A stretch of 64,000 nucleotides of DNA from Calditrichales bacterium (GCA_965267575.1 OZ254086.1:928001-992000), one strand, 5' to 3'. Shown: positions 41,001 to 61,411, numbered from the stretch's first letter. A program made the numbers and translations. Notes: a model not told the origin generated them from the sequence alone.

Positions 41001-41012
41001 GCATCACCATCC

Positions 41013-43265: not shown

Positions 43266-43290
43266 TTTTTCCTCCATTGAGCAATAACAT

Positions 43291-45096
43291 TTATTTTATT
43301 AAAACCATTTTTCCAAAATCGTGCACTATCTTCCCCGCAGATATGGCGCTCAGTCGGTAGTAGTAAACACCCGATGCCAGCGCGCTGGCGTTAAAATTTA
43401 AACTGCGTTCGCCCGCTGCAAAATCGTTTTCCCGCGAGCTGTAGACCTCGCGTCCGCCGGCATCAAAGACGGTCAGCCGCACATCGGCACGAGCCGGTAA
43501 ATAGAAATCTATACGCGTTTGCGGATTAAAGGGATTGGGGTAGTTGCCGTGGATTTTCAGACTGCGCGGCAAAGCACTCTGTCTGCCCGGCTGTGTGCTT
43601 ACAAGCTGTTCCACGCGGATGCTGCTGAGCAACGGATGTCCGGTCCATTCGGTAAAGTGAATGTCGAGTATACCGTCTTCAACAGCGACGTTTTCCATGC
43701 GCAGCTTATAGGCGGTCTCTACACCGGCCGTTTGCACCAGGTCCAGGCCTTCCACGAGGTTGGCACCCTCCACATCAATGCTAAACACGCGCTGTCCGGC
43801 AGACGATTTGTCCAGTTCGGCAAAACCGAGTTCCACATTGTAGCTACCCTGAGGTACCCGGACGCGGTATTTTACAACCTCATCCAAAGCGGAGAGGTAG
43901 AGCGAATCCAGTTCGCTGTTCTGCACGTCCGCTTCGCCATACACCTGGTGATATCCGTCCATGTGACCGTACTCCACAGCGGGGCCCCAATCCTGGTCGG
44001 CCAGCCAGCTGCCGCCGTAAACGGCATCACCGCCTGCGTTGATCTGCAGCGGAAAGGTAAGCGGTATTTCACGATAAACAGGCACTACATTGTAGCTTTG
44101 AAGATTAGCCTCTTCGCGCGCGTCGCTTATGCCGAAAATAACCAGCGAATATTCCGCTCCGTCGCTCATGGACGATGTTTCCAGCAAAACCGTACGCTTG
44201 TCCGGCTTCAATTCGACGGATTTTACCTGCAGACCGGGCACCACATAGTTGGATAAAACCGAAGCACCTACAGAATCAACGTCTTCCGAAAACTCCGCGG
44301 TGATCGTGCTGTCCTTGGCACGGGCCCAAAGCAGAACCGGCGGCTTGTTGTCCACAAAACCGGTAGCCGCGGCATCCGTAATGGCCAGAACAAGATAGCC
44401 GTCCCGGAAGATGGCATTGTCCGGCGACATATCGACGCGGTTGCCGCTCCAGGTATGCGAGGCTTTTTCCCAACGCTCCTCATCCCACTCGTCAAATTCG
44501 TCGCGCCACTCCAGCGTAAAATTGTTGTTGGTTCCGGTGTCCCCTTGGCCGGGCGTGTAGGCGTAGTAAGCCACCCAATCGTACCAGGCAAAAACGGGCA
44601 GGATGGCGGGATTCCATTCACCCACCCACGGCTCCCACACCGCCGCCCAGATATTCATCATCAGCTTTTGCTCAAAAACGAGCGTTTGAATATGATCCCC
44701 GGTCTGGCGGTAGATTTCCTCGCCGTTTACAAACCAGGCCACATAATCCGGTGTCCATTCAAAAGCATAGGTATTAAAAACATCAAACGGCGCAAAGTCA
44801 ACGCGGTTATGACTGTTATAGATGGTTTGACGTGGCGTAATAGTGGTTGTCTGAACATCGTCGTCATAGCGCCCGAGGATTTCTATATCGATCTCGTTCC
44901 ACTCGTTGCAGCAAACTTCGAAATCATTGTAGGTAAAAAAATTACTGAGAAGTCCTGTTCCGCGGGCCGCTTTGTAATTGACCTCAAAACGTCCGTACAA
45001 AAAAGATTCTTTGGTTCGCAGCTCCGCGCCCTTGTAGTCTTTAGCCTGCGCAAAAAATGCGGCAACAAGCAGCACGGCGATCGTTTTTAGCAGCAT
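43291..45096 (-). CDS. GH16 (EIDIE, lichenase-type) + Ig-like + malectin + T9SS-type CTD
   Basis: YGRFEV, WNEIDIEILG, FEWTPD; INAGG..FAE..RVFSI; YPNPFNP. Confidence 0.9.
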   Translation of the reverse strand: MLLKTIAVLLVAAFFAQAKDYKGAELRTKESFLYGRFEVNYKAARGTGLLSNFFTYNDFEVCCNEWNEIDIEILGRYDDDVQTTTITPRQTIYNSHNRVDFAPFDVFNTYAFEWTPDYVAWFVNGEEIYRQTGDHIQTLVFEQKLMMNIWAAVWEPWVGEWNPAILPVFAWYDWVAYYAYTPGQGDTGTNNNFTLEWRDEFDEWDEERWEKASHTWSGNRVDMSPDNAIFRDGYLVLAITDAAATGFVDNKPPVLLWARAKDSTITAEFSEDVDSVGASVLSNYVVPGLQVKSVELKPDKRTVLLETSSMSDGAEYSLVIFGISDAREEANLQSYNVVPVYREIPLTFPLQINAGGDAVYGGSWLADQDWGPAVEYGHMDGYHQVYGEADVQNSELDSLYLSALDEVVKYRVRVPQGSYNVELGFAELDKSSAGQRVFSIDVEGANLVEGLDLVQTAGVETAYKLRMENVAVEDGILDIHFTEWTGHPLLSSIRVEQLVSTQPGRQSALPRSLKIHGNYPNPFNPQTRIDFYLPARADVRLTVFDAGGREVYSSRENDFAAGERSLNFNASALASGVYYYRLSAISAGKIVHDFGKMVLIK

Positions 45097-45102: not shown

Positions 45103-46601
45103 TCACATCTTTTTGCCGTAATCGAGACGGTTATGAGTAGTTAATTGCGGAAACTCCGGTACCAGAACCGGGAAAGGCACGTTGCGCTGAATGACAAACA
45201 TATCTACGGATGTCAAATTTATTTTTTCAAAGGCGCTCGTATTGATGCTGATCTTGTCACTGTGGCGTTGGCGCAGCTCACTGATGTAGGGGTCAATGTG
45301 GTTTTCCACAAGCTGTAAAGCATTCAGGCTGTCATAATTCATGGAGCGCAGAATATTTTGCCTGCCATACAGTGCCAGCAGATTGTCACGCCACATGGCT
45401 ACATCACGCTCAACCGCGGGATGTTTTTCATAGCCCTTTTGATACGCTTCTTTTGTAATCTCCAGATCGCGCAACAAATCGACAATGGCCAGTTTGAATT
45501 GTTCGCCAAATTGTCCCTGTGGCATTTTGCGCTCCCGGAAAACAAGCGGATGCACCTGGATGGCTTCCTCGAAATCAGCCACAGTCCACATCTCGCCGTC
45601 AATGGAAAAAAGCACCTGGTTACGGATTTTCTCCACGCGCGACATGACATCGTCGATTACCATTTCGTTTTCACCGTCCCGGCGCCAGAAGCGGCTGTTG
45701 AAAGCTCTCTCCTTATCGGCGCTGGTTTTGAAGTACTGCGGCCCGACGGCGTTAACCAGTTCGGTAAAAATAGGCCGGTTGAATTCCACCCGCTTTCCGC
45801 GCATTAGATCAGCCACATGGCCTCGTAAATATCGCGCGCGCCGATTTCCTTAATCTTATCCTGCACATCTGTTACATACTGCTGTAACTGCGCGCCCCCG
45901 ATAACCGGCCGGCGTGTCCAGCCGTCTATCCTCACCAGGAGGTGACGATCCTTGTCCAGTTTGAGCGGACCAATCACATCGCCCTGGGCGCGTTCGCTGT
46001 AGAAAAGCGCCTGCAGCAGGCGGTCATCCAGCGGCTGCAGGAAACCGAAGGACTCGCGCGGCGGCGTAAGCGAGGAGCTGTCCGGATTAAGGTGGTCGAA
46101 GACCTCGTCAAAGCCCATCTCGCCGTTTTGCATCCGGCGCGCCACTTCCGCGGCCAGGGCATCGTTATTGAGCGGGATCATTTCCACGTCGTAGGTACGC
46201 TCGGCCATTTGTAAAACCGTGCGCAGCAATGTTGAATCAACCTGCGCCAGGTCGCCGGCCATCTCTTTGTAATGGATACGGCGCATTGCCTGCTCGCGGC
46301 GTCCCTTAAGATAATTTTGTACTTCGGGGTTGGAAAGCATAACGCCGTCGGCCTCGGCCTCAATGGCCAGCAGCTTTTCGGCGATCAGCGAATTTAATAC
46401 GATTTTACGATGCACATAATTGTCGTTTTTACACCACGCCGGACGGATAGTGTATTCCGCCCGGCGGATGAATTCGTTCACGGAAATCGTACGGTCGCCA
46501 ACCTTTACCAGGATTGTTTCGTCGAATTCCGCTTTTTCGGTAGATGTGCATTGCGCAAGCAGCAAAACAGATGCTGCCAGTAATACAATCCGTTTATACA
46601 T
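45103..46601 (-). pseudogene. SurA/PPIase-like lipoprotein split by a one-base frameshift (or sequencing error)
   Basis: ORFs 45804-46601 and 45103-45816 overlap; one extra base at ~45818 gives a continuous frame; lipobox LAQC; VGDRTISVNEF. Confidence 0.7.
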
Positions 46602-47659
46602 TAAAACATTATCCCCAGGCCGTAGCTGTGTACGTCACCCAGCAGGCCCACATCTCGAAATGCATAGTCAAATTTAATGGCCAGATTACCCATCAGGTAT
46701 TTCTGGAATCCTCCGCCCAGCGTCAGGCCGAACTCGGACCGGTCATCCGGCAGGAAGAGGCCCTTGTAGCCGCCACGCAAAAAGAACTTACCCATGGTGG
46801 GCGCATGAAATTCATATTCACCGCCGAGGTTTACCGATTCCGCGTTGTTGTTGGGATGCAATGCGTCAAGAGCAAACGTAAAACGGTTTTGGTCGGTTTT
46901 GATTGCGTTGACGGCAAAGCCCAGCCGGAAGATCAGCGGCAGTTCCCACTCCTGTGGCAGGTACTGGCCCTGAACGTCGCCGAAATTGCCATCCTCGTTG
47001 GGCAGCGGATCAATCTTTGTAAGCAGGTCCAGCCCTTCGAAACGCATCCGCGTACCGTAATTGGAAATACTCATAGCGATGCGCATACCGTCGCCGCGCT
47101 CACCCGTTGGCGAAAAGAAAAAGGTATTTAGCGTAACACCAAGGTCCACCGCCAGGGCGCTGGCGCTCATATGCCAGATGTCGAAGCCGACGAATTTCCC
47201 GGAGGCGCCAAAGGCAAACCAGTCCGTAAGCTTGCGCGCAAAGGAAAGGTTAAAAGCGTAGGAACTGGAGCTGAACACCTCACCGGTGCCTTCCTGGAAG
47301 TCAACGGTTGTAACATCCATATCACCGTAATCCATGTAAATAAGGCCCGCCCCTATGGTCCCGACGCCCGGTACAACCAGGGCCGTTCCCACAAAGGAAG
47401 AGTTAATATCCACCACCCAGGGCTGGATGGTGAACTGCGCTTCGCTCTGCTTCATAAAGGCCAGACCGGCTGGATTCCAGTACATGGCCGACACATCGCT
47501 GGCCATTGTTACGTAGGCCTCGCCCATGGCCACGCCGGCGCTGCCGTAGCCTACCTCCAGAAAGTCGGCTGTTGTGGTGCCGAAGCGGTTGGGACGCTGC
47601 TGTCCCCAAACCAGCATGGGCACGATCAAGAGTATCAGAAGAATATATTTCGTTTTCAT
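46601..47659 (-). CDS. PorV/PorQ-like (FadL-fold, UPF0164) outer membrane protein
   Basis: FLEVGYGSAGVAMGEA, YWNPAGL, DLGV, LPLIFRLG, RGGYK, DYAF, C-terminal F. Confidence 0.85.
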   Translation of the reverse strand: MKTKYILLILLIVPMLVWGQQRPNRFGTTTADFLEVGYGSAGVAMGEAYVTMASDVSAMYWNPAGLAFMKQSEAQFTIQPWVVDINSSFVGTALVVPGVGTIGAGLIYMDYGDMDVTTVDFQEGTGEVFSSSSYAFNLSFARKLTDWFAFGASGKFVGFDIWHMSASALAVDLGVTLNTFFFSPTGERGDGMRIAMSISNYGTRMRFEGLDLLTKIDPLPNEDGNFGDVQGQYLPQEWELPLIFRLGFAVNAIKTDQNRFTFALDALHPNNNAESVNLGGEYEFHAPTMGKFFLRGGYKGLFLPDDRSEFGLTLGGGFQKYLMGNLAIKFDYAFRDVGLLGDVHSYGLGIMF

Positions 47660-47671
47660 ACCTGCCCTCTT

Positions 47672-50600
47672 CTATTTAACCACAGCGAATTTACCCAGCT
47701 TGGTATCGCCGGTTCTTTCCGCTTTTACATGATAAAGGTAGATGCCGGCCGCTATTTCGAGGCCTTCGCTGGTCAACATATCCCAGTGAATGATACCATT
47801 ATCATTTGGATTATTAACTTCGATTTCATCAATCAATACACCGGAAACCGTAAAGATCTTAATGGTGCATTGCGCCGGCAGGTTGGTAAACATCAGTCTG
47901 CGAGGCTGGTTGAGGAATTTGTTGACTACCGCTTCCTCAAAGGCGTTGGTTACCACATAGGGATTGGGCACCACGCGGATGTCGTCCATGGATGAACTGA
48001 TCAGCCTGGTATTCAGCTCGCCTTCCGGATTGACCTTAAAGCTCACTGAATCCGTGTGCCAGAAAGGACGCTGGAATTTTACGCTGAATACATCCCCGGG
48101 CTGCGGCAGACTGGCGCTGTCGGCAAAAGACTGGAAGTCCAGCGCGAAAGCCGTTGTCGCAAAACGCCCGCGGTTGTCCAGCGGCCCAACCAGAATACGG
48201 TCTTCAAGAATTTCGAAGGTTCCGTTCAGGTTAAGATCGTGGACGACCATTTCCATTTTTTCGAAACTGCCGGTAGTGTCCATAAAGGTGGAGTTCTGCA
48301 CGTAGAAATTGAACGGCAGCTGGAACAGCAGAAAGTCGCGGCTGACCGTCTCATTGTTTTCATCGCGCAGGTTCCGTCGTGAGCTCTGGCTGACATATGC
48401 GGAATCATCGTTTGTAAAGACAATATCAAAATCCCACGGGTAATAGCGGATTTCCTGCGCGGCAGGACTGATATTAAGCCGCGGATTATCACCCACCAGC
48501 CAGCCGCTGTTTTGCGCGTCAAAAGCGGCGCGCTCACGAGGCTGATAAACGTTCAGGCGCATGCCGTCAAAAACGTCGGTGCTGATCGTATCGGCCACGC
48601 GCAGTGTAGCATAGCGCAGTGTATCTGTTGTGCCCGGTTCCACCTCTTCAACCAGTGTAATGTTATTAAAGGCAAAGGAAGTCGGTACGTCTTCATAAAC
48701 CAGCTCGGAAGAACTGGTGACATCATAGACATGCAGGCTGTTGGTCGTGTAGATCAGGGCATTAGGCACACTCGACAAAGCGTCGATCGTATCGATGCCG
48801 AACTTGACCATATAGGTGTGGTTGGGCTTCAGGCTGTTGTTTGCCAGGATTTGCGCGTCAACATAGCCGCTACCAATCAGGCCTTCCATTTCAACATCAT
48901 CCACCGTTGGCGGCACATAGCCGGAAGCATTGGGCCGCGGCACAACGATCGCTACGTTCTGTCCGATGGCGCGTACCTGGTCCTGCTCATTCAGATCCAC
49001 AATGATGGTGTTTTCCGACGGGGCGATACCCGGTCCGATATCCGGCGCGCCATAGTCGTAAGCGACCAGGGCGTAATAATAGGTGCGGCCGTTCTCAACA
49101 TTTTCATCAATAAAGTGGTGTACGATACCGCTATCAAAACCGAGGTTGTAGCCGACGCCGTTAACCAGGCCGTAATCGGTAAACCCAACGCGGCCGTTTT
49201 TCAGGTCGCACTGGAAAATGGGTTTTTTGATAAACGGCGTTCCAAAGCCATCGGTAATAACTTCGGCGTCTGAGAAACGCTTATCGGTTGCACGATATAC
49301 TTTATAACCCTCGAAGTCATTAATGTTGCCAACGAACGGGTCACGCGTTCTCTTGTCGGCGATGTCATCCCAAGTCAAAATCACTTTTCCGTCCGCGGCC
49401 GTAGCCGTAAGGGTGGGCATGCGCGGCGGCTGTGCAAAACGGTAATCCGATTCATAGATTACCTGCACGATGCGCTTTTGCTCATAAAGTGCGGGAGCGG
49501 TATGTGCGTCCGAGTTCAAACCGGACAGTTCATCATAGGCATGCAGTTCGGACATGGAGATACGCTCTTCACGGCCCTGGAACAGCGGGAAAGGTCCGGA
49601 TGCGAATGTCTCGATCAGGTTGGAAATATTACCGAGAAATTCCAGCGTAGAGTCCTGACCGATCAGTTCCCACATGGAGCGGTCGCCACGGAACCAGCGG
49701 TAGCTGGAGCTATGGCTTGGTACCGGAAACAGACGGAAAGATGTCAAACCGACCATATCCGATTCTGAAACATCCGTTGCGGCAAAGTCAGGCTCGGCGC
49801 CGATACCCTGCACATAATCGGGACGATGGTTGCCCTCGGTTCCGTCGGCATCGGGGCCGGTATAGTTCAGTTCCAGAGGTCCAACGCCATCCAGGCCTAC
49901 GTCGTCACCGGGGAATTCATTGCTTTGGTAAATGCCATCACCGTTCAGGTCGTTGCCGTCATCCCAGTCCTGGTCTTCATCTGCGTCCCAGTGTTCGCGC
50001 AGATCTTCAAGTTTCAAATTGTAAAACGCAAGGAATTTATCAAGGTCGTCGATGCCTTCAGTGGGACCAACAAGTGCTGTGGCCACGTTATCGCGCTGCT
50101 CATTCAACAGACCGTCCTGGTCGTTATCTATGTCGTCATAGGGGATGCCCGGGCTTTCCAGGTAAGCAAAACCCATCACACCCGTATTCAAACCACCGCG
50201 ACCGGTTCCGTCCACATCCCAGGAGTACGCCATGTCAATCTGGCGGTCAAAGAAACCAAGCTCGTCATCGGCCTCACCGCCGATACCGTTGTCCACCCAG
50301 TAACCAAAGGCCACTTCGGGCAGATCATAGTCGGAAATGTTGGCGATGCTATATTCCCAGAAAATCGCGTCACGTGCCTGCGGGTTATTCCACTGAAAAC
50401 CACGCTGAGACACACGTACACCAATACCGCCCCAGGGCAGTCCGTTTTGCTGCTCGATGCTGTTGGTAAGTTTGTCACCGATAAAAACACCGGGACGCGG
50501 GTAATACTTAGCCCTGTCTTCCGGACCGAGATACTCCTGATCATTGGCGTCGTTGGCCACGAAATAGGTTTCCAGGTCGGCATAAATAATACCGCGGCCA

Positions 50601-51166
50601 AAGCGGCCGTTCCATTCACCGGGCCATTTGGTGTTGGTGCCCTGTGCCGGCCAGCCCATGGTCGGCCAGCTTTGCGGCAGGTTGCTCATGGCCGGGTACT
50701 CGCTGGCTTCATTGAAGTAGCCAAATACGGGGTAGAGTCCCCATTCCACCAGACCGAGCGGATCGGTATCCATTTCTTCACGGTAGCTGGTCTGCAGGAA
50801 GTAGAGCGTATCCAGGCCGGGCGTGCTCATAATGTCAACGGGATCGGTTACCGGAACGGTGTCGTTTTCAACATAAACCCGGGCACCGATCAGCAGGCCC
50901 ACACCATCAAGCATGCGCACGCCGTCGTCATTGTTGGGCCAGCGCGACCACAGGGGCGGGCCAACGCCATCTACCCACTTGGACAGCTCGGTTGTATTCT
51001 GAAAATAGAGGAACACGCGGTTACCCGTCATGTAGCCTTCACGCTCGGCGGCTTTATCGCCGGCGGGGTCATCCGGCCCTTCGTATCGCTGGCCCTGGGC
51101 CAGAAGGGTGGAACCTGCGCCGAAGAGCAGCGCCAACAGTAAAATTATCCTAATCTTGCACATCAT
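47672..51166 (-). CDS. Large secreted protein with Ca-binding DxDxDG motifs, Fn3-like region and variant CTD
   Basis: Signal peptide; DIDNDQDG, DLNGDG; FEGYKVYR..YYYALVAYD; VVPNPY..FTNLP..IFTVSG..GIYLYHV..GKFAVVK. Confidence 0.75.
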   Translation of the reverse strand: MMCKIRIILLLALLFGAGSTLLAQGQRYEGPDDPAGDKAAEREGYMTGNRVFLYFQNTTELSKWVDGVGPPLWSRWPNNDDGVRMLDGVGLLIGARVYVENDTVPVTDPVDIMSTPGLDTLYFLQTSYREEMDTDPLGLVEWGLYPVFGYFNEASEYPAMSNLPQSWPTMGWPAQGTNTKWPGEWNGRFGRGIIYADLETYFVANDANDQEYLGPEDRAKYYPRPGVFIGDKLTNSIEQQNGLPWGGIGVRVSQRGFQWNNPQARDAIFWEYSIANISDYDLPEVAFGYWVDNGIGGEADDELGFFDRQIDMAYSWDVDGTGRGGLNTGVMGFAYLESPGIPYDDIDNDQDGLLNEQRDNVATALVGPTEGIDDLDKFLAFYNLKLEDLREHWDADEDQDWDDGNDLNGDGIYQSNEFPGDDVGLDGVGPLELNYTGPDADGTEGNHRPDYVQGIGAEPDFAATDVSESDMVGLTSFRLFPVPSHSSSYRWFRGDRSMWELIGQDSTLEFLGNISNLIETFASGPFPLFQGREERISMSELHAYDELSGLNSDAHTAPALYEQKRIVQVIYESDYRFAQPPRMPTLTATAADGKVILTWDDIADKRTRDPFVGNINDFEGYKVYRATDKRFSDAEVITDGFGTPFIKKPIFQCDLKNGRVGFTDYGLVNGVGYNLGFDSGIVHHFIDENVENGRTYYYALVAYDYGAPDIGPGIAPSENTIIVDLNEQDQVRAIGQNVAIVVPRPNASGYVPPTVDDVEMEGLIGSGYVDAQILANNSLKPNHTYMVKFGIDTIDALSSVPNALIYTTNSLHVYDVTSSSELVYEDVPTSFAFNNITLVEEVEPGTTDTLRYATLRVADTISTDVFDGMRLNVYQPRERAAFDAQNSGWLVGDNPRLNISPAAQEIRYYPWDFDIVFTNDDSAYVSQSSRRNLRDENNETVSRDFLLFQLPFNFYVQNSTFMDTTGSFEKMEMVVHDLNLNGTFEILEDRILVGPLDNRGRFATTAFALDFQSFADSASLPQPGDVFSVKFQRPFWHTDSVSFKVNPEGELNTRLISSSMDDIRVVPNPYVVTNAFEEAVVNKFLNQPRRLMFTNLPAQCTIKIFTVSGVLIDEIEVNNPNDNGIIHWDMLTSEGLEIAAGIYLYHVKAERTGDTKLGKFAVVK

Positions 51167-51182
51167 ATGTCTTTCAACCCTT

Positions 51183-53897
51183 TTAGAATGTTAGGCCAAC
51201 GCCAAATTTCACGTAACGCGGCGCTGAATATTGCGATGGGTTTTGTATCCTGTCATAATATGTATTGAAATCTTCCTTGTGCGATGCCAGCTCCGAAGGC
51301 TCAACTACATCGGTATAGGCACGTCCGGATTGGCCATTCACTGCTACTTCGTTCAACGCATCCAGCAGATTGAAAACACTCAGGTCAAACTGCAGGCCAA
51401 ATCTCTGAGATAGGCGCATCTTGTAGAAAGCCGTCATGTCCAGGCTTACCTGAGTCGGGCGGTAATCGTTGTTCGGAGGCAGGTTAAGGTCGGCAAGCGT
51501 GCTCACACCCAGCGGAGACCAGGTATACGGAGCGCCGCTATTGTAATAACCCGTAAATGTAAGGCCCCACTGCGGCTTGTAGTAGCCAACCGTGGCGTTA
51601 AGCGTATGGCGCTGATCCCAGCTCATTACAATCAGCTTGTTTACAGGGTCTATATTGCTGCCGGCACGGCTGAAGGTCTGCGTCGGGTTATCGGCGTTGC
51701 CCCGTGTGTATTGCAGCGTGTAGTTTAGAAACGCGGCCCACTCTCCGAGGCGGTAATCCACTTTTACTTCAAGTCCTTTTGCGTTGCCGTAATCTTTGTT
51801 TGTATACAGACCGTATTCCACCTGGTTGTATGTGGTTACCACTTTCGCGCTCAGCAAATTATAGATGTCGCGGTAAAACAGGGCCAGTTCCAGGCCAAAT
51901 CCGTCGAACAGTTCCTGCCACAATCCCATTTCATATTGGACTGTTTTCTGGGCTTTTATCTCAGCGTTGCCCATGGTCGTGGCAAAGTCGCTGGGAGAAA
52001 CCAGGAAATTACTGTTCTGGTAGAGCGCGTAAAGCGGCGGCATCTGGAAAAAGTGACCATAGCTAAAGCGCAAAACCGCTTTGTCGCCAAGCTGGTAGGC
52101 CAGACCCAAACGGGGGCTTACCTGGATTTTCTTTTCAGCCTTGGGATAACTGGAAGTCTGGTTTAAGGAATCAGCAAACTCCAGCTGGTTGCCGGGGTTG
52201 CGGCGATCCGAAGGATAGACCGTATTGGGATCAAAATAGTCCAGACGCAGACCCAGGTTGATCACCATATCCTGGTATTCCATTTTATCCTGGATATAGG
52301 CAGCCACTTCGATTGGCTCCACCGTATAGGCATCCGTAAAACTGGATGTCGGCGGCAGGATTTCGGGGATATATTCGGCCGTTCCGTCAATCAGGTTTGC
52401 CCGCAGATCTTCGCCGTCCTGAACGGCAAACAGTTCATTGCGGATGGCGCTTTCCCTGTTATCCAGGCGGTGAAAGATATAATGAAAACCGGTCTTGATA
52501 GCATGTTTGTTGTTAATCTGCCAGGTCAGGTCAAGTTTGGCATTGTAATCTTCAAGCGTGCGCTCGTTATGGGTTTTTACCTGGCCGCCCGTAAAAAAGC
52601 CCACATCTTCCGTACTACGCAAATAACCATCATGAACATAGCGCGCATCAAGCGGATTGTCGAACAGGTAATAACCATTAAAATTATTCACGTAGGATAC
52701 ATTAAACTGGTAAAAAGCTGATAAGCCTAGAGACTGGTTAAGCTGCATGGAATACATATCCGTCTCACGGAAAGCCGTTGGCAGTCCGTCCGGGTTATAT
52801 TTAAAGCTATGATCGTATCCGTTCCACTCATCGTCATTGCGGGTATAAAGCAGGGAGACTTTCATCTCGTCGCTAAACTTATAGGTCAATTTGCCCAACA
52901 GAGATGTGTTGAGCGAATTGTTCATGGGGACAAAACTGTTATCACCTGTATGCTGCGTCAGCCAGGTTCCTTCCGGGCCGGAATAGTCACTGTAATCATC
53001 CACGTTAAAACGGCGGATTCCGTTCAGGTGGTTTTTGTTGTCCTGGAAACGGGCATTGGTAAAAAAGTAGAGTTTACCGGGAAGCAGCGAGCCACTCAGG
53101 TTAACTTTGTAATCCTGGTTTCGCAGCATGTCCACTTCACCCAGCCCAATAAAAATATCGTCGTTTGAGGTCAGATAGGTTCCGGAATTCACCGATACCG
53201 ATCCGCTGAGCTTGTCTCCGCCATCCTTGACTACGGCATTTACAACACCGCTCATGGCGCGTCCGTATTCGGCGTTAAACGTACCGGTTATAACTTCAAG
53301 GTCGCTAATCGACTCCGGCTCCAGGTCTACCGTCGAACCTTCGCCGCCAAACAGTTCATCCACCGGCAACCCGTCAACCATATAGGAAACTTCATTGCTC
53401 CGGCCGCCGCGGAAGTGGCCGTTTACAACACCGGCCTGCATCGAAATAACCGCGCCAACATTCTCAACCGGCAGAATATCGATCTGGTCGGAGCTGATAG
53501 CGCGCATAGAACTGGTCTGATCTTTCTTGGTAGCAATCTTGCTGGCCTGAACCGTAATTACCTCGCCTTCAAGCACCTCGCTGTCCAGCGTTATTTCAAG
53601 ATAGGCCGTGCGGTTTACGGAAACGCGTACATCTTCGACTTTAACTGTTTTATAGCCCAGCATTTCTACGGACAACTCGTAGGTTCCGGGCGCTACGTTC
53701 AGAATAAAAAAGCTGCCATCAAGGCCAACGGAAGCGCCCAAAGACGTACCGGTTACCAGCACGTTGGCGCCCGGCAGGGGTTCTCCGCTTTGCGCATCGA
53801 ATACCGTTCCGGCAATCTTGCCTGTTGTCTGGGCAAAGGCACTGCCAGCTGCGCATGTAATTAGAATTATAAATGTGAGTAAAATTTTTCGTTTCAT
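51183..53897 (-). CDS. TonB-dependent receptor with N-terminal carboxypeptidase-regulatory-like domain
   Basis: GKIAGTV..GEPLPGANV; RGGRSNEVSYMVDG, GTFNAEYG; SPRLG; PRYVKFGVGLTF; likely start MKRKIL at 53897. Confidence 0.92.
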   Translation of the reverse strand: MKRKILLTFIILITCAAGSAFAQTTGKIAGTVFDAQSGEPLPGANVLVTGTSLGASVGLDGSFFILNVAPGTYELSVEMLGYKTVKVEDVRVSVNRTAYLEITLDSEVLEGEVITVQASKIATKKDQTSSMRAISSDQIDILPVENVGAVISMQAGVVNGHFRGGRSNEVSYMVDGLPVDELFGGEGSTVDLEPESISDLEVITGTFNAEYGRAMSGVVNAVVKDGGDKLSGSVSVNSGTYLTSNDDIFIGLGEVDMLRNQDYKVNLSGSLLPGKLYFFTNARFQDNKNHLNGIRRFNVDDYSDYSGPEGTWLTQHTGDNSFVPMNNSLNTSLLGKLTYKFSDEMKVSLLYTRNDDEWNGYDHSFKYNPDGLPTAFRETDMYSMQLNQSLGLSAFYQFNVSYVNNFNGYYLFDNPLDARYVHDGYLRSTEDVGFFTGGQVKTHNERTLEDYNAKLDLTWQINNKHAIKTGFHYIFHRLDNRESAIRNELFAVQDGEDLRANLIDGTAEYIPEILPPTSSFTDAYTVEPIEVAAYIQDKMEYQDMVINLGLRLDYFDPNTVYPSDRRNPGNQLEFADSLNQTSSYPKAEKKIQVSPRLGLAYQLGDKAVLRFSYGHFFQMPPLYALYQNSNFLVSPSDFATTMGNAEIKAQKTVQYEMGLWQELFDGFGLELALFYRDIYNLLSAKVVTTYNQVEYGLYTNKDYGNAKGLEVKVDYRLGEWAAFLNYTLQYTRGNADNPTQTFSRAGSNIDPVNKLIVMSWDQRHTLNATVGYYKPQWGLTFTGYYNSGAPYTWSPLGVSTLADLNLPPNNDYRPTQVSLDMTAFYKMRLSQRFGLQFDLSVFNLLDALNEVAVNGQSGRAYTDVVEPSELASHKEDFNTYYDRIQNPSQYSAPRYVKFGVGLTF

Positions 53898-53921
53898 ACC
53901 GGAAATCCTTTTGGCCACATT

Positions 53922-53953
53922 AAAAAATGGGAGAGTCCCGAAGGACCCTCCCA
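53922..53953 (-). terminator. Intrinsic terminator-like hairpin between the CBM gene and the TonB receptor gene
   Basis: Minus strand TGGGAGGGTCC-TTCG-GGACTCTCCCA-TTTTTT. Confidence 0.8.
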
Positions 53954-53969
53954 GATATTACGTTCGCTT

Positions 53970-56477
53970 TTATTTAACCAATAGCATTTTACGTGTCTGT
54001 ACAAAATCAGCCGCTTCAATGATGTAGAAATATACACCGGAAGAGAGGCCTGTACCATCTACTTTAACGAAATGCGTACCGGCGGTATGGTTACCACTTA
54101 CCAATGTACGGATTTTCTGACCGACAACATTGTAAAGCGTAATGGTAGCTTTGCCTGCTTTAGGCAGAGCGTATTCAATGGTTGTCGTCGGGTTGAACGG
54201 GTTGGGATAGTTTTGTCCCAGGTTGTATTCACGTACAACCGCGATTTCTTTATCACCGATAGCGCTTACAACAGCATTGGTATCACCGATCCAGGTGTAG
54301 AACCAGTTCTGGACACCCTGCCAGCTGTTGTCAAAGTTATTCGGCGAATAGGAAAGAATACCATCGCGCACGTTAGCCTGATCCGAGTCATGGAAAACCA
54401 GATCCAGCGGAATGCGCATACCACGCTTGGGCTCAAACAGAGCATCGTCGGAAGCGTTGCCGGTTGGCAATTCAGCCAACGGAATCATTACTTCAACGGC
54501 AAAGTCGGAAGCGCCAAAATCAACAAATTCGTAGTTGGCGTCGTCATTTGTGTAATAGAGGCTGGCGTCGCTGTTTTGTGTATGCTCAAAACCATCCGGA
54601 CGCAGAACGAACTTATAATCCGGCTCTTCGCCGCGCTTGAAGCCGTTATGCACAACCGTTTGGTTATAGAGACCCATGTAAACTTCGATAACATCATCTT
54701 CCCAGAAATTACCGGCAGGATCATAGCTGAAAACATCATCAAGAACATCAAATGCCATGTAGAGATTTTCACTGTCGATTGCCAGGTAGGCAGTGGAAGA
54801 ATAGTCATCATCATCATCAAAGTTGCCCAAAGCGATGTGGCTTTGAGAAGGTGAAAACTCAAAAGGACGAATATCGCTGTTAAACCATTCATCCAGGTTA
54901 CCGTCTGCGGCAAAACCGGCAGGGGCGGCCTGGGCGATCGTCGCAACGCCTTCAGCCGTATTAACCGTAGCAGATGCGGAAGCACCCACAGAACTGGTGT
55001 TACCGGCGGCGTCTGTACAGGTTACCGCATAGTAATAGGAAACTTCCGTGTCTTCCAACGGATAGATGAGGCGATGAATCGCGCTCTGCTCGCCTTCAAC
55101 AACACCCGTTGCCAAAACTTCAACGCCCGGGGCGTCTACGTCGGTAATCGGTTCGGTGCTGGCGTAAACATTATAAAATTCGCCTTGTTCACCGGGTACA
55201 TCCTGCCAGATAACCAGGTTGAAATAGCTGGATGTATTGGGCGCGCCGCTTACACCGGTCGGAGCAGCGGGAGCAACCACGTCGATATCCGGGTTACCTG
55301 TCCAGAAATCATCAAAATAGATCGTACGGCCGGCCATACCATTACCTTCAGACAAAAACTGCAAAACAGTAATAGCAGAAGTATCGAGATCAGCAGTACC
55401 GTCAACATAAGCGAAATCTTTTAATGCGAGAGCGTATTCATGCCACTCACCATCATCAGCAACCACATCAACCGGGTGGCCCACTTTACCTGCGCCGCCT
55501 TCAATTTGCATACGGATGGTCGGTGTACCAACATCAGCCTTCATCTTGAACTTCAGAGAATCGGTCATCCAGTCACGGGCCAGATCTGTAGCAGGCAGGT
55601 TCCATCCGGCACCAGTCCAGCCGCCGCATCCGCCGTCACCCTGAATCCACTTCAGCCCGTTTTTGCCTTCGGAGGAGCCGGCACCTTCTTCAACGCTTAA
55701 CTGCGATTCACACCAGGTGAACTGCTCATGGGCACCCGGAACGCTGTTTCCGTTAAACAGAACCAGGCTTTTGCCCAGATAGCCTTTGAGCGTCATGTTA
55801 TCAAGAATAACGGAACCCTGGGAAATGTCGCCTTCACCGGAACCATTGATCGAGAATTCAAAAGCAAACTGACGGATTTTATCTGTATCCAGCTTGTCGT
55901 TACCTTCAATACCGGCCCAGCCTGTACGGTTGAACGCTTCACCGCCCCACTCATCCAGATCGGGATTGCCACGGCCGTCTTCCAGCTTGATCTTGATCTC
56001 ATTCCAGCCCGGCTCATTATCCAGGATGTAATGGAAGCTGTAGTAAAACTCCATGTTGTTGGAGTTGGTCGACGTATCCGGTGCGTTACTGGCATCACTC
56101 AGGTTGATGCGCAGATGAACGCGGCCTGCCAGGTCTTGCTTTACATCATTATAATACCAGATGCTCAGCGTATCGAAAGCCGACCAGTCATAAAATCCCG
56201 CACTGTCCGGGTTGGTATGCTCAAGCTTTACAAAGCCGCCATAACCTTCAATGTTATGCACTTTGTAATCCAGGCGTATGGCGCCGGAACCGTCCTGAAC
56301 AACTTCTGTCTCCAGCGGGTACCCAATATTACTCGTCGAATCCGACGAGGATGGTGAGCGGACTATGGAGAAATAGGTCGAATCCAGCTGCGTATCAAAC
56401 GACTGGATCACGTCCTGCGCCCACAGCCCCAGCGGGAACAGAAGCACCATAAATAGGAACACGTAAGTCTTCTTCAT
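53970..56477 (-). CDS. Non-catalytic multi-CBM protein (galactose-binding-like x2, Fn3, CBM9-like, T9SS-type CTD)
   Basis: DWSAFDTLSIW, WHEYALALKDF, YYYAVT, DGNLDEW..LYMAFDVLDD..VEVMIPL; QNYPNPFNP; AGGAGG RBS. Confidence 0.75.
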   Translation of the reverse strand: MKKTYVFLFMVLLFPLGLWAQDVIQSFDTQLDSTYFSIVRSPSSSDSTSNIGYPLETEVVQDGSGAIRLDYKVHNIEGYGGFVKLEHTNPDSAGFYDWSAFDTLSIWYYNDVKQDLAGRVHLRINLSDASNAPDTSTNSNNMEFYYSFHYILDNEPGWNEIKIKLEDGRGNPDLDEWGGEAFNRTGWAGIEGNDKLDTDKIRQFAFEFSINGSGEGDISQGSVILDNMTLKGYLGKSLVLFNGNSVPGAHEQFTWCESQLSVEEGAGSSEGKNGLKWIQGDGGCGGWTGAGWNLPATDLARDWMTDSLKFKMKADVGTPTIRMQIEGGAGKVGHPVDVVADDGEWHEYALALKDFAYVDGTADLDTSAITVLQFLSEGNGMAGRTIYFDDFWTGNPDIDVVAPAAPTGVSGAPNTSSYFNLVIWQDVPGEQGEFYNVYASTEPITDVDAPGVEVLATGVVEGEQSAIHRLIYPLEDTEVSYYYAVTCTDAAGNTSSVGASASATVNTAEGVATIAQAAPAGFAADGNLDEWFNSDIRPFEFSPSQSHIALGNFDDDDDYSSTAYLAIDSENLYMAFDVLDDVFSYDPAGNFWEDDVIEVYMGLYNQTVVHNGFKRGEEPDYKFVLRPDGFEHTQNSDASLYYTNDDANYEFVDFGASDFAVEVMIPLAELPTGNASDDALFEPKRGMRIPLDLVFHDSDQANVRDGILSYSPNNFDNSWQGVQNWFYTWIGDTNAVVSAIGDKEIAVVREYNLGQNYPNPFNPTTTIEYALPKAGKATITLYNVVGQKIRTLVSGNHTAGTHFVKVDGTGLSSGVYFYIIEAADFVQTRKMLLVK

Positions 56478-57901
56478 AAAGACCTCCTGATTTTGTTAGA
56501 GTTGGGTGAATTGTGTGAGAGATTGTTTTTATGCTTGCCACGCCCAAAAGGCATAGCGGATCGTAAAAAAGGTTGCTCAAAAATGTGGCCGCTTTTATGG
56601 CCGGCCAGCCACAATACGACAAAAGCGAGCGCCAGAAAGGCGGCGGAAAAGACGGTCAGAAAAACATTACCTGCTTGTGAGGTAAAAGCCCAGACCATTA
56701 AAACAGCGGCCGGAACGGTAACGGCAAAAAGCAGCCAGCTTAAGCGCCCCGGTGTGCGCCCGCTGAGCAGAGCAAAAAGTATTAACGCCAGCAAAGCAGG
56801 AACAATGAAGATGGTTATAACGGCGACCGTATCAAACAGATTGAAAGCAAAAGAAAGTGTAGTGGGCACCAATACGATAACCAGCGGTACAGAGACGATC
56901 GAAAACAGCCTGGCGGCCAAAACGCGCTTGCGCCCCACCGGCGCCTCGATTATCCGCGGCAAAATATCATAACTGAAAAGCGTCGCCGATGAGAACAACA
57001 GAGATGCCAGTGCCGACAGCAGCATGAGCGCCAGGGCTAGGTAGCCCACGAAACCGGCGGCTCCCGCTTCACTGGCAACAAAGGGGCGCGAAAGTGCCGG
57101 GGTGCTGGCCGTCAGCAAAACGGCGATCAACGTAAATGCCAGCGCTGCTGCCCAAAGTGCTTTGCGCGCGGCGGCAATACTGCCGGTGGCAAAAAGGCGC
57201 TGCAACTGATTCTGGTCCCCCAGCCAAAGCCAGGCCACCACAAAAACGAGCGCGAAAAACGGCAGACTGAAAAATCCGCCCTCCATCGGAAACGCATGCT
57301 TGGTTCCGGTAAGTACAAACCCGGTAAGCAGCAGCAGCATAAAAACCGTATGAACGGCACCGCTGAATACAATCGCCCTGAGCCCGCCGATGATGGCAAA
57401 AAGTCCGGCAAATATCAATATGACATAAGCGCCCAGGTAGGGGTTCCAGCCCAGCATTTTTTGCAGCAACGTACCTGCGGCAAAAAGCAAAAGCAAAATA
57501 CGCAAAAGGTTAAAAAGCATCAGTCCGGCAGCATACCACAGTGCTATGCCGACATTAAAACGGCGGCGAATGAATTCGGAAATTGAACGCAGGGAATCAC
57601 TCATATAAGCAGGGATAAAGAAAACACCGAGGAGAAGCAGCGCCGGCAAAATAAGCAGGTCTGCATAAAAGGCGTTGCCCCAGCCTTTATCCAGCCCGAT
57701 ATACTCCATGATATGCCAGGCCGAGATATAAGCTGCCGGTAATGATAAACCGCTCAGCCAGGGAGAGAGCCTGAAGCCTGCCATGAAATACTCACGGCTG
57801 CTCTCATCATTATGACGACGCGCCATATACAGACTTGCCAGCAAGCTAAGGCCGGCAGCCAGAAAAAAGATGACTGATTCAAAGCTTAAATTCAGAGTCA
57901 C
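56474..57901 (-). CDS. Divergent SLC5/SSS-family membrane protein
   Basis: EYFMAG, SEFIRRRF, GGLRAIV, DQNQLQR, SSATLF; substrate-site motifs altered. Confidence 0.75.
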   Translation of the reverse strand: MTLNLSFESVIFFLAAGLSLLASLYMARRHNDESSREYFMAGFRLSPWLSGLSLPAAYISAWHIMEYIGLDKGWGNAFYADLLILPALLLLGVFFIPAYMSDSLRSISEFIRRRFNVGIALWYAAGLMLFNLLRILLLLFAAGTLLQKMLGWNPYLGAYVILIFAGLFAIIGGLRAIVFSGAVHTVFMLLLLTGFVLTGTKHAFPMEGGFFSLPFFALVFVVAWLWLGDQNQLQRLFATGSIAAARKALWAAALAFTLIAVLLTASTPALSRPFVASEAGAAGFVGYLALALMLLSALASLLFSSATLFSYDILPRIIEAPVGRKRVLAARLFSIVSVPLVIVLVPTTLSFAFNLFDTVAVITIFIVPALLALILFALLSGRTPGRLSWLLFAVTVPAAVLMVWAFTSQAGNVFLTVFSAAFLALAFVVLWLAGHKSGHIFEQPFLRSAMPFGRGKHKNNLSHNSPNSNKIRRSL

Positions 57902-59831: not shown

Positions 59832-61411
59832 TGCGCATTCACCTCGAAATAGTTGTAGTTGGCGCCACCGGCTTCAACCATCAGGCGCAGGACCTGCTCG
59901 CCCTGCTCCAGGCTGAATGTCTTTGTCGTCACATTCTGCCAGTTCTGCCAGCCGCCGCTGGAGGGAATGTCAACCAGCCCGGTGAGGTCATTGTTCCCGC
60001 TGTAAAAGCGAAATTGAGCGCCGCTTTGGTTGGCCGCGCAACGAACGGTTATACTGTAGGAACCGCTTTGCGGCACATCAATGGTGTATTCCAGCCACTC
60101 GCCGTTTTCGGCCCAACCCACATTGTAGCCACCGCCGGCATCACTGCAGCGTTCGATATCCACGCCTTCATCGCTGCGGAAGGCACCGCCTGTGTTGCTT
60201 AGCGGTGTTGTATCGAAATAGGCCACGTTTTGCCCGCCGAGATCGTAGGCTTCACACTGCACGCGTCCCGGCACCTCAAACGGTTCACCGTTGTAGGGCG
60301 TCTGTTCGCAGCCGCTGCCCACCGTCAGATTCAGGATATCGGAAACCTGCGCCATGCCGTTTTTGTCGGTCGCCCGGGCACGCACCATAAGACAGCCTTG
60401 CGGCACGTCGTTCCAGGTGTAACGGAAGGGCGCGCTGTTCACTGTGGCAATCTTCCTGGCGCCGTTAAAAAAAGCCACTTCGCTGATATTCGCGTTATGT
60501 TCAACCGTCGCCTCCAGCGTGACAGGCACACCGGCCTCATAAGTATCGCCGTCCTTTGCTTCCAGCGTTATCTGCGGTCGTTCACCGGCGCGTTCATACA
60601 CCCGCACATAATCGATGTACATGCGTTGCGGAAATTGTGTCGTTTCATCAGGGTAGCCCGGCCAGTTTCCGCCAACGGCCACGTTCAGCAAAATGTGGAA
60701 GCGCTTGTCAAACGGCGCCGGCCAGGGCGCACTGTTGCTGTACCATTCATCCTGCGTGGCATACAGCTCACCATCCACGTACCAGCGCATTTCGCCTGGT
60801 TCCCACTCCAATGCAAACAGGTGATATTCATCCGCGAAACGACCATTATCCAAAGAAAAACTGGTGCCTGTATGCACATTTCCCGGCCAGCTGTCACCGT
60901 AATGCAGCGTTCCGTGAACGGTCGACGGTTCATGTCCGACCAACTCCATGATGTCGATTTCGCCGCTGGCAGCCCAGCCGCCATATTCCCAGTCCGTGGG
61001 CAACATCCATATCGCCGGCCAAATGCCCTGTCCGAAAGGCAGTTTGGCGCGAATCTCAAAGCGTCCGTAAAGCCAGTCGCCTTTGTTTTTAGTGGTCATC
61101 CTGGCCGAGGTATATTCGGAGCCTTCATAATTTTCTTTCCGCGCTTCAATTACCAGAACACTATCCAGTATGTAGGCGTTTTGCGAACGTGCGGTATAGT
61201 TTTGCCATTCGTTGTTACCCCACCCGCTGGCGCCCAGCTCAAAGTTCCAGCGTGAACCATCAACGGCCTCTCCGTTGAACTCGTCCTGCCAGACCAGTTT
61301 CCAATCGCCGTCCTGCCCGGAATCGTTATTTTCCGGTTGCGCGGGATTGGAACAGCTAAAGGAGGTATTCACCAGCAGCAATATGATCAGAAGATTTTTA
61401 TAAACAGACAT
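59828..61411 (-). CDS. GH16 laminarinase-type (EIDIME) lipoprotein + Ig-like + CBM6
   Basis: WQDEF, GWGNNEWQ, GIWPAIWML, GEIDIMELVG, NVAVGGNWPG; GGWQNW; likely start MSVYKN at 61411. Confidence 0.92.
   Translation of the reverse strand: MSVYKNLLIILLLVNTSFSCSNPAQPENNDSGQDGDWKLVWQDEFNGEAVDGSRWNFELGASGWGNNEWQNYTARSQNAYILDSVLVIEARKENYEGSEYTSARMTTKNKGDWLYGRFEIRAKLPFGQGIWPAIWMLPTDWEYGGWAASGEIDIMELVGHEPSTVHGTLHYGDSWPGNVHTGTSFSLDNGRFADEYHLFALEWEPGEMRWYVDGELYATQDEWYSNSAPWPAPFDKRFHILLNVAVGGNWPGYPDETTQFPQRMYIDYVRVYERAGERPQITLEAKDGDTYEAGVPVTLEATVEHNANISEVAFFNGARKIATVNSAPFRYTWNDVPQGCLMVRARATDKNGMAQVSDILNLTVGSGCEQTPYNGEPFEVPGRVQCEAYDLGGQNVAYFDTTPLSNTGGAFRSDEGVDIERCSDAGGGYNVGWAENGEWLEYTIDVPQSGSYSITVRCAANQSGAQFRFYSGNNDLTGLVDIPSSGGWQNWQNVTTKTFSLEQGEQVLRLMVEAGGANYNYFEVNAQ

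Follow-up and report, generated by a model that had tools for sequence, protein, structure and literature searches.

A polysaccharide utilization locus (PUL) in the strict sense consists of a susC/susD gene pair together with genes for carbohydrate-active enzymes (CAZymes). SusC/SusD pairs are the marker by which such loci are found and counted; because of this use, phyla without SusD are largely invisible to such surveys. Adjacency of another gene pair, porU and porV, is also known in Bacteroidota. The architecture of SusD is based on tetratricopeptide repeats (TPR), as described in passages of PMC2954216. Regarding the secretion system of type IX (T9SS), passages of PMC10202324 state that the C-terminal tail of PorZ stays on PorQ and that of PorU on PorV, and that cognate PorV-like barrels may shield such tails from cleavage. 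Excerpts of PMC11285876 give lengths of 67 to 88 amino acids (aa) for the cleaved tails of Porphyromonas gingivalis and of 96 and 108 aa for the uncleaved tails of PorZ and PorU, respectively. Here, a DNA stretch of 64,000 nucleotides (nt) from a Calditrichales bacterium (GCA_965267575.1 OZ254086.1:928001-992000), referred to below as the window, was analyzed. It contains three adjacent genes encoding a TonB-dependent transporter (TBDT), a large protein named BIG here, and a barrel of the PorV/PorQ family. On balance, we read this locus as the outer-membrane core of a SusD-independent PUL, here for beta-glucans, in which BIG would be a T9SS-delivered and barrel-anchored partner of the TBDT.

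The TBDT-BIG-PorV-like trio and its conservation

The core region (45103-56477, minus strand) comprises six open reading frames (ORFs). The successive gaps between them, starting from the gene of the protein with carbohydrate-binding modules (CBM), are 51, 16, 12, -1, and -13 nt. The features of this region are as follows.

53970-56477, minus strand: CBM9/CBM11 protein, 835 aa (Pfam, TIGR04183)
53928-53953, minus strand: terminator-like hairpin (consensus scan)
51183-53918, minus strand: TBDT, 911 aa (Pfam CarboxypepD_reg, Plug, and TonB barrel)
47672-51166, minus strand: BIG, 1164 aa (0 Pfam families)
46601-47659, minus strand: PorV/PorQ-family barrel, 352 aa (NF033709)
45804-46601, minus strand: SurA-like protein, N-terminal half, 265 aa (SurA_N_2 just under the cut-off)
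45103-45816, minus strand: SurA-like protein, C-terminal half, 237 aa (no family match; tblastn with relatives)

The initial annotation had described this region as five tightly packed, co-oriented genes. Packing and orientation were borne out; the fifth gene proved to be two ORFs with a frame switch rather than one.

Related loci were collected by a scan of one genome per species, in which at least 603 stretches matched and 541 were confirmed as relatives; the best 80 of these yielded 79 loci. According to the record titles, the loci belong to Calditrichota (12), Neomarinimicrobiota/Marinimicrobia (14), KSB1 (5), Ignavibacteria-type (12), Eisenbacteria (6), Rhodothermales-type (4), Stahlbacteria (1), Bacteroidota-type names (9), Lentisphaeria (1), Deferribacteres (1), and plain "bacterium" (14). 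Synteny was counted by comparison of the window proteins with all locus ORFs using phmmer. The trio was adjacent in 48 of the 50 loci with room on both sides, in the order TBDT-BIG-PorV in 46 loci and TBDT-PorV-BIG in 2. This arrangement is far beyond chance, and the trio loci span Calditrichota, Fidelibacterota, KSB1, Ignavibacteriota, Eisenbacteria, and Rhodothermota. Among the 59 loci with 2.9 kb or more of upstream sequence, 56 carried a TBDT orthologue upstream of BIG, and a PorV-like barrel was encoded in 58 of the 59 loci for which 1.3 kb or more of downstream sequence was available; L073 represents an ORF-calling artefact. The genes are closely spaced, with a median gap of 15 nt between TBDT and BIG (60 nt or less in 50 of 57 loci) and of 14 nt between BIG and the barrel (60 nt or less in 46 of 53), figures that are approximate since the first start codon was taken as the ORF start. 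In locus L014 (282-12263), three tandem BIG genes are followed by one PorV-like barrel gene, and no TBDT gene is located within 7.5 kb upstream.

The similarity scores of the three proteins to the window copies were correlated over 56 loci (Spearman 0.92-0.94). The three gene trees (FastTree, 43 loci) shared 20 to 22 of 40 splits, compared to a maximum of 2 to 3 after random relabeling. One metagenome-assembled genome (MAG) carries two trios that differ in all three proteins, with BIG 66% (L001) versus 30% (L077) identical to that of the window. These sequence comparisons give good support to the view that the trio has been inherited, duplicated, and diversified as one unit.

The absence of a SusD-like gene next to the TonB receptor, claimed in the initial annotation, was upheld. 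A Pfam search for the SusD families (SusD_RagB and SusD-like) revealed no match in the 36 window ORFs scanned (14 at E≤0.01, 13 at E≤0.001, and 9 at E≤1e-5). There was likewise no SusD match by Pfam in 238 same-strand flanking ORFs of the related loci L017 to L077 (96, 97, and 45 ORFs, E≤1e-8 or 1e-10); 89 flanking ORFs of L001 to L017 were labeled by phmmer only, outside the Pfam scan. No SusD structure was present among the listed fold matches of BIG or of its N-terminal head. The AlphaFold2 (AF2) models of BIG are mostly beta, not of the alpha-helical TPR fold of SusD, and the protein, which starts with MMCKIRIILLLALLFGAGSTLLAQGQ, has no Cys after the hydrophobic core as a SusD lipoprotein would. 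An adjacent pair of susC-like and susD-like genes, as in the strict definition of a PUL, is missing from this locus, the layout of which is otherwise PUL-like.

Pfam analysis of the TBDT revealed Plug (E 7.9e-10) and TonB_dep_Rec_b-barrel (E 6.1e-26), corresponding to the plug and 22-strand-type barrel of TonB-dependent transporters. By curated cut-off, the protein is not a SusC/RagA member: TIGR04056 gave 59.8 bits versus 368.25, and only over residues 34 to 164. Its N terminus is a carboxypeptidase-regulatory-like domain, and PF25183 was also matched, both of which we take to be features of Oar-type receptors. These two features would fit a TBDT that works outward, as is reported for Myxococcus Oar, and helps to export BIG or other locus proteins; Oar is needed for PopC secretion, as stated in passages of PMC6434023. 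We consider outward transport highly improbable here: the T9SS tails already provide BIG and the enzymes with an export route, and the TBDT loci hold inner-membrane sugar importers and LacI-type regulators, which constitute an import signature.

Anatomy of BIG and predicted pairing of its tail with the barrel

A word-indexed search for BIG relatives identified 1734 among 7999 candidates scored. The best of them are 61 to 70% identical and come from records named Calditrichota, KSB1, and Neomarinimicrobiota; the nearest relatives of the window are Calditrichaceae MAGs, which makes Calditrichota its most likely origin. When representatives of clusters formed at 50% identity were scanned exhaustively with HMMER, 3887 clusters matched at E≤1e-3, and 1734 and 420 clusters still matched at E≤1e-10 and E≤1e-30, respectively. 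Caldithrix abyssi carries a BIG orthologue annotated as Calab_3088. Pfam analysis of 30 diverse family members gave no meaningful or consistent match, and a sequence search of the Protein Data Bank (PDB) with BIG gave no match at E≤1. In the ESM Atlas, whole BIG matched unnamed clusters only, and the head gave no usable match to named clusters. BIG has a signal peptide and lacks a lipobox Cys; because of this combination, the T9SS is the only visible route to the surface for this protein.

The AF2 model of BIG, generated from a 30-row alignment, was mostly beta (pLDDT 85.5, pTM 0.72). A fold search with the whole protein returned only chains of immunoglobulin (Ig) and fibronectin type III (Fn3) domains at low TM scores, among which Fn3 chains were dominant. 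Four parts can be distinguished in the protein.

49427-51079, minus strand: BIG head, residues 30-580 (modeled alone by AF2, pLDDT 87.8, pTM 0.87)
49037-49429, minus strand: Fn3-like domain, residues ~580-710 (conservation, Fn3 fold matches)
48017-48766, minus strand: variable beta-sandwich region, residues ~801-1050 (low identity, gaps)
47675-47989, minus strand: variant C-terminal domain, residues ~1060-1164 (tail length, PorZ-tail match, docking)

The head is a compact beta-rich domain with Asp-rich loops, in which the motifs D347/D349/D351/G352/E356 and D422/G424/D426/G427 are invariant. These motifs look like putative calcium sites. The fold matches of the head were weak (TM 0.26-0.36) and pointed to beta-supersandwich domains, namely, those of dextran dextrinase (9ju0), glycoside hydrolase (GH) family GH116 (7w2t and 5bvu), GH94 (8bou and 3rrs), cyclic glucan synthase (8rfe), and copper amine oxidases. 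The proteins P0136, P0138, P0141, P0144, P0159, P0171, and P0174 combine the BIG head, or part of it, with an ordinary type-A T9SS tail.

The best conserved part of the family is the Fn3-like domain (residues 580-710; identity 0.56 in all members and 0.48 in distant members), and the tail (1060-1164; 0.54 and 0.44) is among the most conserved, together with the Asp-rich loops (341-475; 0.53 and 0.40). The variable region (801-1050) is the least conserved, with an identity of 0.25-0.31 in all members and 0.17-0.20 in distant members and a gap fraction of 0.16-0.21 in the latter, and it accommodates the extra length of the longer family members. It is a candidate for the substrate-specific part of BIG. 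A conserved head, Fn3-like domain, and tail would fit constant protein partners, and variable beta-sandwiches would fit changing ligands.

The same anatomy bears on the explanation that BIG, anchored at the surface by the barrel, binds glycans independently or acts as a new kind of enzyme, with no contact to the TBDT and with gene adjacency that reflects nothing but co-regulation. This would agree with the weak resemblance of the head to beta-supersandwich domains that accompany glycoside hydrolases and phosphorylases, with the existence of family members composed of a head and an ordinary tail, and with the tandem BIG genes of L014 that have no TBDT nearby. We hold this explanation to be unlikely, as the head and Fn3-like domain are conserved across clades beside unrelated CAZymes, which a constant protein partner fits better, and the TBDT-then-BIG order is near-invariant with very short gaps.

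The BIG tail measures 99 aa from the VPNPY motif to the C terminus, compared to 79 to 83 aa in the canonical tails of the window. Against a hidden Markov model (HMM) built from seven type-A tails of the window it scored 15.1 bits, whereas those tails themselves scored 106 to 122 bits. The type-A C-terminal domain (CTD) model TIGR04183 gave 17.3 bits versus a cut-off of 23, and PF18962 was not matched in BIG by Pfam. By sequence, the tail thus appears related to the type-A T9SS tail but divergent from it. Curated models matched BIG weakly and only within the C-terminal ~100 aa; the best of these were the PorZ and PorU tails (PorZ tail NF052228, E 9.8e-7). The full-length PorU and PorZ models gave 18.1 bits of 420 and 27.6 of 260, respectively, in the tail only, and no peptidase Pfam domain was detected in BIG. 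Identity of BIG with the T9SS sortase PorU or with PorZ was rejected on the grounds of the tail-only match, the multiple copies in one MAG, and the link to substrates. The variant CTD that the initial annotation had assigned to the 1164-aa protein could thus be confirmed, with a 99-aa tail that is below the TIGR04183 cut-off and PorZ/PorU-like.

The co-encoded barrel belongs to the PorV/PorQ family, as NF033709 gave 209.6 bits versus a cut-off of 90 over residues 28 to 352. It remained under the equivalog cut-offs of PorV (NF033710, 75.8 of 250 bits), PorQ (NF033711, 78 of 220), and PorV2 (56.7 of 325), and it matched PorV in the PDB (6h3i_F) with E 1e-7. Judged by these matches, the 352-aa protein is a FadL-like outer-membrane barrel and a locus-specific PorV/PorQ paralogue.

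Docking of the barrel (34-row alignment) with BIG residues 1040 to 1164 (30-row alignment) predicted a complex with an ipSAE of 0.90 in all three runs, whereas the best of three controls reached 0.37. Of solved complexes, 116 of 157 attain the mark applied, as do 2 of 215 mismatched pairs. The runs agreed on at least 93% of contacts, with a partner pLDDT of at least 74. The BIG tail has 22 positions at which 90% or more of the members agree, and 12 of these are contact residues (Fisher p 0.011). According to this model, the BIG tail quite likely binds the co-encoded barrel. The locus-specific PorV-like anchor postulated in the initial annotation gained support, as the predicted tail-barrel interaction passed its controls. 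Tail length, conservation, PorZ/PorU-like matches, and predicted docking together suggest that the tail may be retained after export. No fusion of BIG with the barrel or the TBDT was found among 272 collected proteins, and none of the 9 longer proteins that match the barrel is fused to BIG, which is weak evidence. P0273 (946 aa, a single record) consists of a PorV-like barrel (residues 11-300) and an extension of ~550 aa with an ordinary T9SS tail at its end.

The PorZ/PorU likeness and the barrel family also allow a different explanation, in which BIG and the barrel form a locus-specific secretion or attachment device and the TBDT imports products alone. The barrel would then shuttle the CTD-bearing enzymes of the locus from the T9SS translocon, and BIG would process or tether them in a PorZ/PorU-like manner. 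In line with this, the best, though weak, matches of BIG are to PorZ (besides NF052228, 5m11 with a Foldseek E of 5.6e-7), PorU was matched both by the curated model and at fold rank 29 (6za2), PorV is described as a substrate shuttle in passages of PMC12578637 (citing Glew 2017), and CTD-tagged proteins are plentiful in trio loci. Several observations nevertheless make such a device improbable. The PorZ and PorU matches are limited to the tail and Ig-like parts, with a TM of 0.09-0.12 for PorZ, and BIG is far below the PorU sortase cut-off and has no peptidase domain, as given above. BIG diversifies with CAZyme class and is multi-copy per genome, which is unusual for general machinery. Its tight gene coupling is with the TBDT, at the median gap of 15 nt, not with the enzymes, and many trio loci hold cytoplasmic- or periplasmic-type enzymes (GH130 and GH94) and ATP-binding cassette (ABC) importers with few CTD enzymes.

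Flanking CAZymes and the proposed role of the trio

Three GH16 genes, one GH3 gene, and two GH5 genes surround the core in the window, and the locus therefore targets beta-glucans. The flanks of the related loci contain GH16/GH3/GH5; GH130 with ABC sugar transporters; GH94 with PF10091, a pairing that we take to be beta-1,2-glucan-related; GH92; GH97 with GH27; GH95; GH59 with GH31; GH2; and GH9. Many LacI regulators were found in the trio flanks, and nucleoside-hydrolase-like genes were also seen.

In the BIG tree (FastTree, 64 rows), a clade of 19 rows (support 97) from Calditrichota, Fidelibacterota, and unlabeled MAGs contains the window and all beta-glucan loci. Another clade of 9 rows (support 100) unites Eisenbacteria, Ignavibacteriota, Rhodothermota, and Calditrichota rows. 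Within it, GH94 and/or PF10091 is present in the flanks of L065, L067, L069, L074, and L077, only a LacI regulator in L064 and L066, and only an ABC solute-binding protein in L068; nothing was identified by Pfam in the L071 flanks. CAZyme class changed 10 times on the BIG tree (10 classes, 35 rows), compared to a mean of 19.1 and a minimum of 16 in 300 shuffles. Phylum also changed 10 times (5 classes, 24 rows; shuffle mean 14.3, minimum 11), and on the same 24 rows CAZyme class changed 7 times (7 classes). In this tree, BIG clades follow the flanking CAZyme class rather than phylum. Since linked genes are co-inherited, this shows joint movement and diversification of the entire locus; protein contact is not implied.

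The placement of the trio as a unit among CAZymes, sugar regulators, and inner-membrane sugar transporters that vary by clade is well supported. The SusD-less uptake module proposed in the initial annotation was thereby strengthened, as there was no SusD match, synteny was conserved across the named phyla, and the flanking CAZymes vary. The trio very probably serves nutrient uptake, mostly of glycans. Passages of PMC12296878 report a GH16 laminarinase from a hot-spring metagenome with best matches of ~66 to 67% identity in Marinimicrobia, KSB1, and Calditrichaeota. This pattern echoes the cross-phylum conservation of the trio; the passages of that paper contain no gene context.

The reading of the locus as the core of a SusD-independent PUL implies the following mechanism. 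The GH16 and GH5 enzymes and the CBM protein would be exported by the T9SS via canonical type-A tails and would bind and cut beta-glucan at the surface. BIG would be exported by the same system, and its longer, conserved variant tail would be kept and plugged onto the co-encoded barrel, as modeled after the PorZ tail on PorQ and the PorU tail on PorV. In this way, the barrel would serve as a non-covalent outer-membrane anchor that keeps BIG next to the TBDT. The head and Fn3-like domain would associate with the TBDT, and the variable beta-sandwich region would capture oligosaccharides. BIG would pass these to the TBDT for TonB-powered import, the role that SusD (and SusE/F-like proteins) has in Bacteroidota. 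After import, periplasmic GH3 would trim the oligosaccharides, and SSF symporters would take up the sugars. Where present, the SurA-like protein might act as a chaperone for barrel assembly or for the periplasmic transit of BIG. BIG may itself bind glycans, and a position on the TBDT as lid or feeder is put forward with reserve. One may speculate that phyla without the surface-lipoprotein route of Bacteroidota use the T9SS and a barrel anchor instead.

A number of findings weigh against this reading. Co-divergence and the tracking of labels are expected of any linked genes and are no proof of physical interaction. On the barrel side, conserved positions were not overrepresented among the contacts (10 of 54, p 0.28). 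A PorV-substrate complex has already been solved (8gl6 and the entries sharing its PorV chain), so that the positive docking result may stem from resemblance to this structure. According to the model, the BIG tail is able to dock in the way a T9SS tail does on PorV, which leaves staying and shuttling undistinguished. Three of the 59 loci with room (L014, L017, and L032) have no nearby TBDT, and one of 59 (L040) has no barrel. A terminator-like hairpin stands between the CBM gene and the trio. There is no recognizable glycan-binding domain in BIG, and the head was matched only weakly, at the TM scores given above. Short family members join the BIG head to an ordinary type-A tail, and the head can therefore work without the special tail. 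Some loci contain few or no CAZymes, such as L020 and L025 with S9 peptidases. In L023 (12084-17572) and L033 (10668-11444), up to four nucleoside-hydrolase-like (IU_nuc_hydro) genes come after the trio in place of classical CAZymes. The trios of L023 and L033 come from KSB1 and Marinimicrobia MAGs, and their flanks hint at a non-polysaccharide substrate in this clade.

More tentative than the lid or feeder position is a broader interpretation of the same arrangement. A large part of the FCB (Fibrobacterota-Chlorobiota-Bacteroidota) superphylum outside the classical Bacteroidota might possess a second TonB glycan-capture architecture parallel to SusCD, in which the surface partner of the transporter is T9SS cargo and a duplicated PorV/PorQ barrel is a permanent subunit holding this partner on the transporter. 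If so, T9SS parts would be building blocks of nutrient-uptake machines, and the function of SusD would be filled by the BIG family, which has thousands of clusters and no Pfam domain.

Companion genes, the wider window, and comparison with known systems

The SurA-like gene is represented in the window by two ORFs, with a frame switch near 45816-45822. Relatives carry this gene as one ORF of ~490 to 600 aa. tblastn with six single-ORF relatives (488-563 aa) covered both halves, and the 265-aa half aligned to residues ~20 to 270 of single-ORF relatives. Judged from these alignments, the split would be either a frameshift or a sequencing error. The frame switch is located outside any homopolymer run, and the L010 orthologue is likewise split. 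The 265-aa ORF matched SurA_N_2 with E 3.2e-6 (27.5 bits versus a cut-off of 28.5), and its signal peptide ends in Cys (LLAQC); the N-terminal half may therefore encode a lipoprotein. Pfam revealed no Rotamase/peptidyl-prolyl isomerase (PPIase) domain in the window copy; Rotamase domains were found in the relatives L038, L047, L048, L054, and L060. SurA-like ORFs, counted with an HMM built from the first matches, occurred in 30 of 52 loci with room, in 19 of them directly after the core, and were absent beside the closest relatives L001 and L003. Of the SurA/PPIase gene in the initial annotation, the SurA-like character remains likely; the gene is facultative and frameshifted, and the PPIase domain was undetected in the window copy.

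The CBM protein matched CBM9_1 (E 5e-9), CBM_11 (E 2e-7), and Por_Secre_tail (E 8.6e-9) in Pfam. Its tail is a canonical type-A T9SS CTD (TIGR04183, E 2e-10; 121.8 bits against the HMM of the window's own type-A tails), and the protein is probably a surface glycan-binding protein. In 28 of 47 cases, the gene directly upstream of the TBDT gene encoded a CTD-tagged protein. The CBM protein thus accompanies the TBDT variably from the upstream side and is outside the invariant core, whereas the initial annotation had listed it as a module member. The strong terminator-like hairpin in the 51-nt gap between the CBM and TBDT genes, detected by consensus scan only, has an 11-bp stem with 7 GC pairs and a T run. 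It could be a putative attenuator or processing site that sets different expression levels.

According to the ORF calls, positions 32872-63956 form one long minus-strand gene array with mostly 6 to 22 nt between genes; in the downstream operon genes (32872-45096) the intergenic gaps are 6 to 22 nt. The following neighbors of the core were assigned by Pfam.

32872-34848, minus strand: GH5 with CBM6 and CTD
34857-35885, minus strand: GH5
35894-37471, minus strand: SSF symporter
37494-41000, minus strand: CotH with lamin-tail domain (LTD) and CTD
41013-43277, minus strand: GH3
43291-45096, minus strand: GH16 with malectin and CTD
56474-57901, minus strand: divergent SSF-like transporter, 475 aa (partial Pfam match)
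58071-59831, minus strand: GH16 with malectin and CTD
59828-61513, minus strand: GH16 with CBM6
61564-63009, minus strand: sigma-54-dependent response regulator
63009-63956, minus strand: histidine kinase

The SSF-like transporter gene (56474-57901) and the start of the CBM gene share 4 nt, and the transporter matches the Pfam model only in part. Transporters of relatives in the same position are distant (75-92 bits versus a self-score of 994 bits). A sigma-54 promoter for the NtrC-like regulator was considered and rejected, since only 1 one-mismatch site, located within the TBDT gene, was found versus 7.2 expected by chance. The protein with CotH kinase-like, lamin-tail, and T9SS-tail parts (37494-41000, minus strand) is encoded within the glycan operon. 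CotH proteins adjoin further trios in L020 (2-1213) and L035 (1-1281); the L035 copy has a T9SS tail, and in the truncated L020 copy no T9SS tail was found at E≤1e-8.

Directly downstream of the glycan operon, a dense block of signaling genes (22639-32790, minus strand) encodes an 881-aa hybrid kinase, a 1243-aa GAF/PAS kinase, two LuxR-type response regulators, and a PAS/HisKA_3 kinase. On the plus strand, 14146-20870 encodes a 1385-aa hybrid two-component regulator (Reg_prop, Y_Y_Y, HisKA, HATPase, receiver, and AraC HTH); the next genes encode a GH130-like protein bearing a T9SS tail and another tail-bearing protein of 274 aa. The GC content there is 0.35-0.37 versus ~0.5 in the remaining window, and the segment resembles a sensor and glycan module of Bacteroidota style that was acquired separately. 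A 546-aa protein (7023-8663, minus strand) combines a phosphodiester glycosidase (NAGPA) domain, a Golvesin C-terminal domain, and a T9SS tail.

The trio would be a second marker for glycan-uptake loci in Calditrichota, Fidelibacterota (Marinimicrobia/SAR406), KSB1, Ignavibacteriota, Eisenbacteria, and Rhodothermota, phyla that abound in sediments, oxygen-minimum zones, and hot springs. BIG clades would permit substrate prediction. The module also suggests a new use of T9SS parts, in which a PorV paralogue would permanently anchor the partner of a transporter. BIG, as a large family without domain annotation, is now a target for structural biologists. Full-text searches, which covered neither supplements nor subscription-only papers, revealed no description of the trio, and the text of the Caldithrix abyssi genome paper (PMC5317091) does not contain "SusD," "SusC," "Por secretion," or "Calab_3088."

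Comparison with the SusC/SusD system revealed a shared layout, in which the gene of a TBDT with a carboxypeptidase-regulatory-like domain lies directly beside that of a surface partner, the pair is placed among CAZymes, regulators, and inner-membrane sugar transporters, and the orthogroups are substrate specific. In contrast to SusD, BIG is all-beta and not TPR-helical, has no SusD Pfam match, is not a lipoprotein, is twice the size, and has a T9SS tail and its own barrel gene; the TBDT is under the SusC/RagA cut-off. The non-SusD proteins beside non-SusC TBDTs of Bacteroides thetaiotaomicron, proposed by Price, Deutschbauer, and Arkin as alternative lids on the outer face (portions of bioRxiv 10.1101/2023.03.17.533168), are similar in principle. 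Those lids are Bacteroidota lipoproteins, for which the section headings of the preprint suggest smaller substrates, whereas BIG is T9SS cargo with its own barrel, mostly outside Bacteroidota.

PorZ-PorQ and PorU-PorV, as characterized in passages of PMC10202324 and PMC11285876, likewise consist of a secreted protein with a longer uncleaved CTD on a barrel of the PorV/PorQ family. The BIG tail matches the PorZ and PorU tails best, and its docking to the barrel is predicted; however, BIG lacks the PorZ/PorU body, is multi-copy, is linked to a TBDT in nutrient loci, and is diversified by substrate. In SprB/SprF, a cargo gene is also followed by the gene of a dedicated PorV-like barrel (passages of PMC10202324). 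That pair combines type-B cargo with a PorP/SprF barrel, whereas the barrel here belongs to the NF033709 family and has no gliding link, and the BIG tail is nearer to type A/PorZ than to type B, with CHU_C weak in 2 of 30 members. In BamG-BamH, a FadL/PorV-like 14-stranded barrel holds a surface protein via extracellular loops and packs on another barrel (passages of PMC12578637). BamG-BamH differs in that it serves outer-membrane protein biogenesis and BamH is a lipoprotein. Likened by description and not by homology, it is a structural precedent, by analogy, for a PorV-like barrel as a permanent subunit.

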